64,000 nt of DNA, from contig OZ244207.1 of the NCBI GenBank assembly GCA_965216875.1, positions 4,992,001 to 5,056,000 on the forward strand, given 5' to 3'. Each line of letters begins with the position of its first letter. The first letter of the stretch is position 1. Shown here piece by piece: positions 8,901-10,766 of this stretch. The DNA is from Rubripirellula sp. GTDB lineage: Bacteria; Planctomycetota; Planctomycetia; Pirellulales; Pirellulaceae. The translations under genes were made by a program, and so were the position numbers. A model generated the notes under the pieces. The model was not told where the DNA came from. It searched no databases and was given only the letters and a program-made list of their open reading frames with translations.

Positions 8901-10766
8901 TCACTTGATCTCAACCGTCTGGCGAAGCTGAGCTGGGGGCAAACAAAAGGTGTCACGACACACTTCGTAGTCGACCAAGACACGCAACCTCGTTGTCGCG
9001 GCAACGTCATCAACCCGGACTTTCCGACTGAATTGCGCGATCGCTTGGTAGATCTTTTCTTGTGGATTTTGCCTCGAAGGCTGGCCCTTTGAACGGGTCC
9101 ACTTTCCCAGCGGTGCGACACCGCCTGGCAAGTCGAACTTCAGTCGCACTGGAACATGGGCGCCGCCTTCAGGAACTTCCGAGTAAAGGTGCCATCCCGG
9201 TTTGATGGAGATCGTCACCTTCACGTCGTAGACGCCCGGCTGATCCTCAACCGGATCGGCGACCGTCACCATGCTTAACTGGTCCGTCGAAACCTTGTCG
9301 TCAGTCTCGAAGGTGTCCACCTTTTCTTCAGGCTTGACGTCTTTCTCAGGCTTTGCGTCCGGTGATTCTGCCGCTGAGCCCGCGGACGAAACCGCGTGCT
9401 TGGGCGCATCTGGATTCCGTCGGAAGTACCAAACTTGACTGATACGAGATTCCTTTTCGATGAACTCTTTGTTCCGCTCGCTCAGCTTTTCGAACCTACC
9501 TTGAAATGGCTTCATCGCCTCTTCGAAGGCCTCTTGATCGTAGTCCCCGGCCTCAAACTTCTTGGCAAACTCTTTTTGTACCGCTTGGCTTTCCGCCGTC
9601 AGGGCTTCAATCGCCTGCCGCACTTCTTCCTGGGCGACTTTTTCTTCGTCGGTCATCTCGCGCAGGTGATAGACGTCTGAGTAGTCGCCAACGATCAAGT
9701 CGAGCCAACCATCGTTGTCATAGTCAACAACGCAGATCTGGCTTCGAACGCCCAGTGCCGCTTCGTCGTCCTTGCCAAGGTATTGCATCTTGAACTTTGA
9801 TTCCGAACCAGCTGCGATCAGTGGTCGGTACGCTTCGAACTTTGGCTCACCTGTTGAACCTTGCGTCACGTTGCGATACCAGCCAACTGCGCCGTCACCC
9901 GAACCGACGACCAAGTCCCATTTGCCGTCGTTGTCCCAATCAGCAGCAACGGGCGCAGCGTGCATGTTGACGTGCAAGGGTTCCTCACCAACGTTCACTT
10001 GGATCGCGTCGACCGAGTACTTCGGTGTTTCGCGCGTGCCGATGTTCGTGCGCAAAAACAAGTCGCCCGAGAACGAACCTATCAAAACGTCGAGATCGCC
10101 GTCGCCATCCCAATCGACGGTCGTCGGCCAGCTTCCAAAGGTCGCGACTCGCAACGTGATTGAATCGGTATCACCAGAGTTCTGCTTCTCTTCGTCAAGC
10201 TCATTCCACTTGGCAAGCTCGACCGGATGGTGGACCAGTTCGATTCCTGACTCGTCACGAATCTTTTCGACTTCGGCATACTTGCCATCACCCAAACCGC
10301 GAAACAGATAGATGTCGCCGGGGTCGTACGAACCGCTGATCATGTCGAGCGTGCCGTCGTTGTCGTAGTCCACAAACTGTGGACTTGACGCGATGCATCA
10401 GTAAACCGGTGTCTTGGCATCGACACCACCTGCTTGAAGTTTGCCTTTGGACGTGTACTCAGGCTTTTCGTCGTTGGCCGTGTTTTCGAAGAACCAAAAG
10501 AAGCCTGGAAAATCCCCCACCAACAGATCGCGGTCACCATCACCATCGACGTCCGCCACGCAGGGTCCAGCGTGAGCAATGTTTGACAATTGACCGATGT
10601 CGATCGGCTTGCCGTCCGCTTGGATGCGAACTCCTTTGTCTAGATCGCCGACCACTCGATCTTTCGTCAAGTCCTGCTCGCCGGCGATCGCCGTTGGAAG
10701 CGCCAGCAGCCCCATCAACAGCGTGCATGAACCACGCCCCACCTTCCTCAATAACCGACAACACAT
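8901..10766 (-). CDS. Candidate selenoprotein: secreted FG-GAP/VCBS-repeat protein with U123-C124 and a C-terminal DsbD-alpha-like domain (621 aa with TGA readthrough at 10398-10400)
   Basis: ORFs 10398..10766 and 8901..10373 are in one frame and join as KTPVY-TGA-CIASSPQFVDYDNDG; repeated DxDxDGxxDLxxG motifs lie on both sides; C-terminus has IKPGWHLYS and YEVCRDTFCLPP; SECIS-like hairpin follows the TGA. Confidence 0.75.
10362..10400 (-). promoter_or_regulatory. Bacterial SECIS-like element
   Basis: UGA, a 12-nt spacer, then AGUCCACA-GUU-UGUGGACU (perfect 8-bp stem, loop starting GU), extended by GUC/GAC. Confidence 0.7.

Follow-up and report, generated by a model that had tools for sequence, protein, structure and literature searches.

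The window analyzed here is a 64,000-nucleotide stretch of a Rubripirellula sp. genome (contig OZ244207.1, positions 4,992,001 to 5,056,000), and the subject of this report is one gene on its minus strand, positions 8901-10766, which comprises 621 codons, contains an in-frame TGA, and ends at a true TGA stop at 8901-8903. Two open reading frames (ORFs) are located here in the same frame, one of 122 codons (10766..10398, ATG start) and one of 490 codons (10373..8901, GTG start), and their sole separator is the TGA at 10400..10398. Read through, the translation is KTPVY-U-CIASSPQFVDYDNDG, and the product has 621 residues, with selenocysteine (Sec, U) as residue 123. A GGGAG motif lies 9-13 nt 5' of the ATG of the 122-codon ORF, and this upstream part encodes a signal-peptide-like N-terminus (MCCRLLRKVGRGSCTLLMGLLALPTAIA, followed by GE) and the first D-x-D-x-D-G blade. 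The GTG of the 490-codon ORF falls within the second blade motif (QF-V-DYDNDG), and the product of that ORF has no signal peptide. A preliminary description of this locus, made from the letters alone, proposed a TGA-split frame with a ribosome-binding site, a signal peptide and the first FG-GAP repeat upstream of the TGA, and a GTG in mid-repeat downstream; each of these details was confirmed, as was, by translation, a single 621-aa protein with an adjacent U123-C124 pair. The overall selenoprotein interpretation of that description is largely supported, and the checks that were run came out in its favor.

The databases have only the downstream part of this gene: the entry P0152 is the 490-aa downstream product, and most database relatives span approximately 79% of the query. 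The pieces are named “hypothetical”, “VCBS repeat-containing”, “FG-GAP-like repeat-containing” or “DsbD domain-containing”. We consider it very likely that the in-frame TGA is read as selenocysteine and that the two ORFs are one selenoprotein gene. The locus is a real Sec-recoding site in a widespread exported FG-GAP family that is outside the published catalogues; the family and the fold are new, and the mechanism is known.

When 41 related genomes were searched in six frames and the resulting loci were examined with tblastn, an aligned TGA-Cys was found in seven other genera and Cys in place of the TGA in two homologues, one of which is a paralogue within the genome of the window. A scan of contigs with one genome per species matched 613 stretches, of which 166 were confirmed as relatives and 80 loci were kept. 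Among these 80 loci, 32 have a stop at the aligned column, one (L065) has the stop one alignment column off, and six have Cys; the remaining kept loci are other FG-GAP proteins that are not aligned at the Sec column. Together, the related-genome search (8 loci) and the contig scan (33 loci) yielded 41 Sec loci, the set to which all counts of Sec loci below refer. The stop at the aligned column is TGA in 41/41, and both flanking halves are open and alignable, although these loci come from several orders and are only ~26-48% identical in protein sequence to the product of the window. The codon after the TGA is TGC in 37 loci, TGT in three and GAC in one.

At the DNA level, Cys occupies the Sec column in L025, L031, L051, L084 and L075, two of which (L051 and L084) read TGC TGC at the dyad. 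A profile search of 1.84 billion representative sequences provided full-length proteins for the same comparison: 22 of the 150 listed matches, those with a single full-length stretch, were used, and the other matches among the 150, mostly long multi-repeat FG-GAP proteins, were excluded. The residue at the Sec column is Cys in 20 of the 22, including eight Cys-Cys proteins, four with the second Cys just before the column, and eight with a single Cys. A quick maximum-likelihood tree built from 39 Sec rows and 20 Cys rows requires eight switches between Sec and Cys, and at least six of these fall on branches with good support. In several clades, U-C forms are sister to C-C forms, and the single-Cys forms make up one clade of seven rows that includes the paralogue from the genome of the window. 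Sec/Cys exchange confined to one column reads as the classical pattern of selenoproteins. The preliminary description had proposed to ask whether homologues carry CC or a conserved TGA-Cys at this site, and what they carry is a conserved TGA-Cys (41 loci) or, at the same column, Cys-Cys or Cys.

Two side observations concern the Cys forms. The paralogue (L031, 1126-2223; G000:C1:7807125-7808021) is a 439-aa frame with G-C-L at the Sec column and no hairpin, directly followed by an arylsulfatase-like ORF with a C-S-P-T-R motif (read-on translation). In two Sec loci (L029 and L030) and one Cys locus (L025), a further Cys precedes the site by five residues (C-x4-U-C or C-x4-C) and is possibly an alternative resolving cysteine.

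A hairpin follows the TGA. After 12 nt (10397..10386), there is an arm AGTCCACA (10385..10378), a GTT loop (10377..10375) and a second arm TGTGGACT (10374..10367), and the two arms form a perfect 8-bp stem. The model of the bacterial selenocysteine insertion sequence (SECIS), bSECIS, calls for an apical loop of 3-9 nt, an upper stem of 4-16 bp, a G within the first two loop positions, a distance from UGA to loop of 16-37 nt, and a minimum free energy (MFE) of at most -7.5 kcal/mol (PMC13188914). The hairpin in the window satisfies all of these constraints, with its 3-nt GUU loop, 8 bp, 20 nt from UGA to loop, and -13.6 kcal/mol. The folding energy of the 48 nt from the TGA is -16.6 kcal/mol (z = -2.36), and 4/200 dinucleotide shuffles are equally stable; the comparative data lift the hairpin far beyond chance.

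The codons of the stem encode S/G/T-P-Q-F/L-V-D, a conserved calcium-loop motif. A control is important because the stem sits on conserved protein codons, and Cys forms and synonymous sites served for this purpose. In a gap-free 48-nt alignment of the 41 Sec loci, 80.5% of the cells are paired; shifting the partners by 1-3 columns lowers this to 24-49%. Six of the eight pairs show changes on both sides, compared to a mean of 1.8 in shuffled alignments, and none of 500 shuffles reached six. The Pro codon is CCG solely where Val is replaced by Ala (GCG), in 4/4 cases, and in L046 (P-C-V-M-D) and L079 (L-Q-F-V-D, with GTA), pairing is preserved via double changes that alter the amino acids. At synonymous positions, the codon preceding Pro has T as its third base in 41/41 loci, across five amino acids, compared to 16.6% elsewhere in the same genes, and CCA, which accounts for 12% of Pro codons elsewhere in these genes, predominates at the hairpin Pro. 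The hairpin is the MFE fold in 39/41 Sec forms (mean -10.7 kcal/mol) and in 0/5 Cys forms; one of the latter, L051, encodes the identical P-Q-F-V-D via CCT...GTC, which is unable to pair. These comparisons argue for a signal in the RNA as opposed to a by-product of the protein sequence. The 8-bp hairpin with a GUU loop after a 12-nt spacer is present as initially described, shows covariation and is confined to Sec forms. A further small hairpin of 6 bp (UGAUGC/GCGUCA), possible only in the window, would involve the UGA and lies directly 5' of the SECIS stem (10386-10400, minus strand); as the spacer is not conserved across the remaining 40 loci, this additional pairing is probably due to chance.

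The Sec machinery, which the preliminary description had proposed to search for, was found in the 8.26-Mb genome: tRNA-Sec scores 71.5 bits and is called by ARAGORN as tRNA-SeC with the anticodon tca (UCA), and selA (507.5 bits), selB (343.5) and selD (249.3) form a selD-selA-selB cluster at 325-331 kb; all four score above their curated cut-offs. Among the 41 related genomes, selB is present in 8/8 carriers of the Sec form and in 27/41 overall. Approximately 2 kb from the cluster, the gene for formylmethanofuran dehydrogenase subunit B (FmdB; G000:C1:332745-334082, + strand; locus L122, 1245-2582) has an in-frame TGA at genome position 333089, with the motif SL-U-HGP, and its read-through product scores 492.5 bits on TIGR03129 (cut-off 327.8). 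Judged by this UGA at a known UHxP Sec site, FmdB is a second selenoprotein gene of the genome. The hairpin beside the FmdB UGA, with an AGUU loop located 25 nt past that codon, does not reach significance on folding energy alone (z = 0.10).

Assembly error does not account for the TGA. In run X5, which comes from an independent study, a near-identical contig covers the gene from end to end and shows 13 differences, eight synonymous and five not, none of which is in the TGA or in the hairpin. The probable source run (X1) agrees on the TGA at a depth of ~900, and the pieces from runs X6 and X7 do not bridge it.

Outside the recoding site, the protein contains FG-GAP repeats. Pfam FG-GAP_3 (PF13517) matches with 79.9 bits (cut-off 26.9) in six stretches, FG-GAP (PF01839) matches with 34.3 bits, and there are five calcium-type D-x-D-x-D-G motifs, at residues 72-80, 133-141, 218-226, 276-284 and 348-356. 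In an AlphaFold2 model built from an 84-row alignment (mean pLDDT 88.5, pTM 0.79), residues 1-31, which include the signal peptide, are disordered, residues 38-448 fold into a beta-propeller, residues 462-487 are disordered, and residues 497-620 form a beta-sandwich domain. The closing strands of the propeller (436-448) follow two inserted helices and carry a family-conserved VW-x-[YF]-R-R motif, which is VWYFRR in the protein of the window. Given its predicted signal peptide, we infer that the protein is exported.

A Foldseek search with the model returned integrin-alpha and BBSome propellers, with E-values down to 5e-9. In a VIA-align comparison to 48,161 representative chains, GH43, GH62 and GH32 glycosidases rank first (Z 18.3-14.5, root-mean-square deviation 3.4-5.4 A, 240-276 residues aligned, model residues 39-462). 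These glycosidases are, we assume, five-bladed propellers, and their top ranks therefore suggest that the FG-GAP propeller is five-bladed as well; the model thus probably has five blades and not seven, in agreement with the five motifs. The fold shared with glycosidases shows no function. U123 and C124 lie in the model in a loop of ~20 residues, between strand 104-109 and strand 130-132, where confidence dips to 83; this loop bridges blades 1 and 2, running from the last strand of the former to the first strand of the latter. In propellers, ligands usually bind on the face that bears such connections between strand four of a blade and strand one of the following blade.

The C-terminal domain was initially described as DsbD-alpha-like, with a CRDTFC pair (C603..C608), and this assignment holds. 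Pfam DsbD_N (PF11412) matches residues 514-614 with 36.7 bits, compared to a cut-off of 25. Searched alone by sequence against the Protein Data Bank, this part gave 0 matches; a profile of four C-terminal-domain sequences matched the DsbD-alpha of E. coli (5nhi, 1l6p, 3pfu and 1jpe, E 9e-4 to 2e-3), with weaker matches to 1jzd and 1vrs. In the alignments to 5nhi and 1l6p, G-W-H-L-Y corresponds to G-Y-Y-L-Y of DsbD-alpha, and C-x4-C-L-P-P corresponds to C-x5-C-Y-P-P; thus, both cysteines match those of DsbD-alpha, which we take to be the catalytic Cys103 and Cys109. The Cys pair is kept in 35/35 rows with the fusion. The genome encodes one DsbD_TM protein, a 914-aa frame with a DsbD_N domain of its own, and the only other DsbD_N domain in the genome is that of the gene in the window. 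The core family is the propeller alone, with the DsbD_N fusion as a minority form. Many database entries cut just after the TGA also carry the fusion. All full-length fusions with a readable site (12/12) have the dyad, four as U-C and eight as C-C, and none of the 10 single-Cys rows has the fusion. One of the full-length fusions, L051, has C-x6-C in its DsbD_N domain.

Combining these data, we propose the following. The UGA at 10398-10400 would be decoded as selenocysteine by SelB and tRNA-Sec, both recruited by the hairpin 12 nt downstream. In the mature protein, the calcium-type FG-GAP propeller and its helical hairpin are joined by a flexible linker to the DsbD-alpha-like domain. Of this, the data establish the recoding signals, with their conservation and covariation, as well as the Sec/Cys exchange, the Sec machinery and the identities of the domains. 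Repeated Sec/Cys exchange at one site is reported to be the usual mark of a redox-active residue (PMC1794560), and because such exchange recurs at this single site, U123 is presumed to be reactive. It could act as a redox-active nucleophile that closes a selenenylsulfide with C124, with the pair acting on a substrate in the cell envelope; the tethered DsbD_N domain (C603/C608) would then re-reduce the U123-C124 bond, with electrons supplied by the single membrane DsbD of the genome. For the statement as a whole, i.e., an exported selenoprotein with the recoding, the architecture and the redox relay, we estimate a probability of roughly three in four, whereas the relay as such has a chance not far below even. 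A broader proposition, which we put forward tentatively and with some doubt, is that the family constitutes a new class of cell-envelope selenoenzymes, in which a five-bladed calcium-binding propeller would carry, on its functional face, a catalytic vicinal Sec-Cys dyad able to close an eight-membered selenenylsulfide ring, wired to the DsbD pathway in cis or in trans. If true, this would be the first thiol/selenol oxidoreductase to use a beta-propeller in place of a thioredoxin-type fold, and Planctomycetota and their relatives would have a branch of extracytoplasmic reductive chemistry that has not been seen before.

Several observations weigh against the recoding as proposed. One Sec locus (L050, 2741-2746) has Asp (GAC) after the TGA, with the hairpin intact; the local folds of four of the 41 loci (L022, L064, L103 and L057) are weaker than -7.5 kcal/mol, and in two (L054 and L057), the MFE fold is a different structure; an E-value scan of positions 10250-10500 of the window against Rfam gave 0 matches; and because the hairpin overlaps the conserved P-Q-F-V-D codons, part of its conservation derives from the protein. 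Searches of two genomes of the same genus (84% and 97% complete) yielded no homologue, and the gene is therefore patchy. Gene callers and databases treat the TGA as a true stop, which would leave two genes (122 and 490 codons), a recent pseudogene or an assembly error. This is extremely improbable: the TGA is at one column in 41 loci of several orders despite the low protein identity, both halves stay open and conserved, the downstream ORF would begin in mid-blade with no signal peptide, the synonymous sites of the hairpin are constrained, and the TGA is present both in the independent contig and in the probable source run (~900 depth). Alternatively, a near-cognate tRNA for Trp, Cys or Arg could read the UGA, and the hairpin would then only stimulate read-through. 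Trp occupies the Sec column in two of the 22 full-length library proteins, as such a reading would allow, and selenium in the protein of the window is deduced from sequence. However, the homologous residue is Cys in the other 20, the hairpin has bacterial SECIS geometry and a G-U apical loop, selB accompanies the Sec form in every carrier genome among the relatives (8/8), and the same genome recodes UGA in FmdB at a known UHxP Sec site, all of which make near-cognate read-through very unlikely.

With selenocysteine accepted, the main functional rival is that the U-C pair is a metal or metalloid site (e.g., for Hg, Cu, As or Se species) that does not undergo redox cycling, in which case the DsbD_N domain would act only to maintain the site in its reduced state, or as a binding module of the Ig-like type. 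Metal-linked families with vicinal CU motifs are on record, namely, MerB-like SaoL, HgcA and the metal-binding double selenoprotein MbdU (PMC13188914, Table 1), and the propeller already has five calcium-type loops. Other data that would fit a metal site also count against the relay. The DsbD_N fusion is found in only 4/41 Sec loci (L021, L022, L039 and L048), such that most family members are without it, and since the fusions cluster on the tree, their association with the dyad is a hint and not a test. Clustering by blastp of the ORFs of at least 90 aa within ~2.5 kb of the 41 Sec loci detected no conserved neighbor and no thiol-redox partner (the largest cluster spans six loci, and its exemplar resembles a repeat protein with a sigma-factor-like start), and the neighbors in the window are not thiol-redox genes. 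Conversely, the fused DsbD_N domain always has its Cys pair (35/35), as expected of an electron-transfer module; a whole clade of single-Cys forms exists, and one ligand makes a weak chelating site; and the alignments show no other conserved Cys or His next to the dyad. Overall, we regard a metal site as unlikely.

The spread of the family was assessed in 301 evenly drawn Planctomycetota genomes, including that of the window, with a match cut-off of E 1e-25. Matches were found in 57/301 genomes, and all 65 rows that span residue 123, from 51 genomes, have at least one in-frame TGA anywhere in the row. A TGA-bearing homologue is thus present in about one-sixth of the sampled genomes (51/301), some with two or three copies; the query was the Sec form, and the sample gives no measure of the frequency of Cys forms. 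The 10 stop-free rows all start at residue 213 or later. By contig title, the Sec forms are mostly from Planctomycetota (including Gemmataceae, Phycisphaerales and Brocadiaceae) and also from Verrucomicrobiota; a few are in metagenome-assembled genomes with other labels, which may reflect binning. Because databases split the family into two genes, selenoproteome counts for these bacteria are too low, and one new model could correct the annotation pipelines. Most known selenoproteins have thioredoxin-like folds (PMC13188914), and an exported beta-propeller with a U-C dyad broadens the range of scaffolds that bear Sec. The recurrent fusion to DsbD-alpha offers a testable hypothesis for an otherwise functionless FG-GAP family, and the family itself is a tractable system in which to ask why Sec and Cys repeatedly swap at one site.

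The preliminary description did not place this architecture among described selenoprotein families, and this stands with respect to the compiled resources, with one qualification. NCBIfam release 20 has no model for the family, the sole match being spurious (E = 0.066), and among the 119 families of a 2026 catalogue (PMC13188914, Table 1), none is listed as FG-GAP, VCBS or propeller and none has “UC” by itself as its motif; the “GxUC” CopZ family comes closest. Neither the main text of deep-Sep (PMC12013277) nor that of BSepDB (PMC13326102) contains the terms FG-GAP, VCBS, propeller, DsbD or Planctomyc-. The qualification is Table S9 of PMC4807772 (2016), which lists unverified “FG-Gap repeat” candidates in four rows, three for the planctomycete P1 and one for P2, with Gly aligned in the closest match and a SECIS predicted in three of the four rows. 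Of the 13 places where PMC4807772 speaks of selenoproteins or selenocysteine, 12 were examined and none of these mentions the candidates, and neither does its supplementary file 14. As the table describes them, they resemble the protein of the window in being planctomycete split-gene FG-GAP proteins with an in-frame UGA, and differ from it in the aligned residue, which is Gly there and Cys in the family of the window; by description, the sole basis of comparison, the two are possibly identical.

In its mechanism, the gene resembles the bacterial genes with a SECIS inside the ORF, of which E. coli fdhF is the prototype (PMC13188914): an in-frame UGA is followed by a stem-loop in the coding region, with a small loop opening with G and then U, a spacing of 20 nt (model 16-37), Cys homologues and the Sec machinery. 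Unlike those genes, its family, fold and U-C motif are outside the 119 families, and its hairpin has no Rfam SECIS match. Another difference from the prototype is that the stem is written on the codons of a calcium loop, such that the constraints on protein and RNA overlap.

The C-terminal domain resembles the N-terminal domain of E. coli DsbD (1L6P, 1JPE, 3PFU, 5NHI and 1VRS) by its Pfam score, by a profile E-value of ~1e-3 and by the alignment of both cysteines, and differs from it in spacing, C-x4-C compared to C-x5-C. Moreover, DsbD-alpha is N-terminal on the membrane protein DsbD, whereas the DsbD_N domain in the window is C-terminal on a soluble exported propeller protein, with the propeller of its own polypeptide as its presumed partner. 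Mammalian thioredoxin reductase has a vicinal Cys-Sec center in a C-terminal G-C-U-G that is re-reduced by a second dithiol center, and the two systems are alike in having adjacent Sec and Cys able to close an eight-membered selenenylsulfide ring. They are unrelated, however: the order in the window is U-C and not C-U, the pair is on an internal propeller loop as opposed to a flexible tail, and the protein is exported and has no flavin domain. PQQ methanol dehydrogenase, in which a vicinal disulfide is located on an eight-bladed propeller, likewise combines a redox-relevant pair of adjacent cysteines with a beta-propeller; it is unrelated in sequence and has neither Sec nor a DsbD-type domain.

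Table 1. Features of the predicted selenoprotein gene, with positions in the window and the basis of each assignment.
Feature	Positions	Strand	Basis
Selenoprotein gene (predicted)	8901..10766	-	ORF list, translation
Putative signal peptide, residues 1-29: basic n-region, hydrophobic core, AIA before GE	10680..10766	-	Sequence reading; hydrophobic N-termini in homologues too; modelled disordered
UGA as selenocysteine, U123 (predicted)	10398..10400	-	TGA in 41/41 loci; Cys-form homologues; Sec machinery
Cys124, vicinal partner of U123	10395..10397	-	TGC/TGT after TGA in 40/41 loci
SECIS-like hairpin: 8-bp stem (10378-10385 with 10367-10374), GUU loop (10375-10377)	10367..10385	-	12 nt past UGA
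FG-GAP beta-propeller, residues 38-448	9423..10655	-	Pfam; model pLDDT mostly >90; Foldseek; VIA-align
Helical hairpin (helices 373-405 and 411-433) ahead of the last propeller strands	9468..9650	-	Predicted model; length varies across the family
Disordered acidic/lysine-rich linker, residues 462-487	9306..9383	-	pLDDT <50
DsbD-alpha-like (DsbD_N) domain, residues 497-620	8907..9278	-	Pfam PF11412; profile match to solved DsbD-alpha chains; high pLDDT
Cys pair C603-x4-C608 (CRDTFC), then LPP	8943..8960	-	Kept in 35/35 fusion rows

Some minor observations concern the rest of the genome. The selD match (G000:C1:325282-326163, locus L019) lies within a 749-aa open frame, compared to a model of 311 positions, and SelD may be fused to another domain in this genome. 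A second match to the tRNA-Sec model, at G000:C1:4264107-4264192 (L002), scores 48.3 bits, compared to a gathering score of 47, and is probably another long-arm tRNA. The protein of the window has no match to PF07593 (UnbV_ASPIC) in Pfam at E up to 0.1; the genome has 16 UnbV_ASPIC (CRTAC1-like) FG-GAP frames of ~1,000 aa, all elsewhere, and the two shortest of these (717 and 793 aa), the only two of the 16 that were inspected, are not split by TGA. In the window, the neighbors of the selenoprotein gene encode an FMO-like flavoprotein (convergent), a small GFO/IDH/MocA-like protein and a leucine-rich repeat (LRR) protein.

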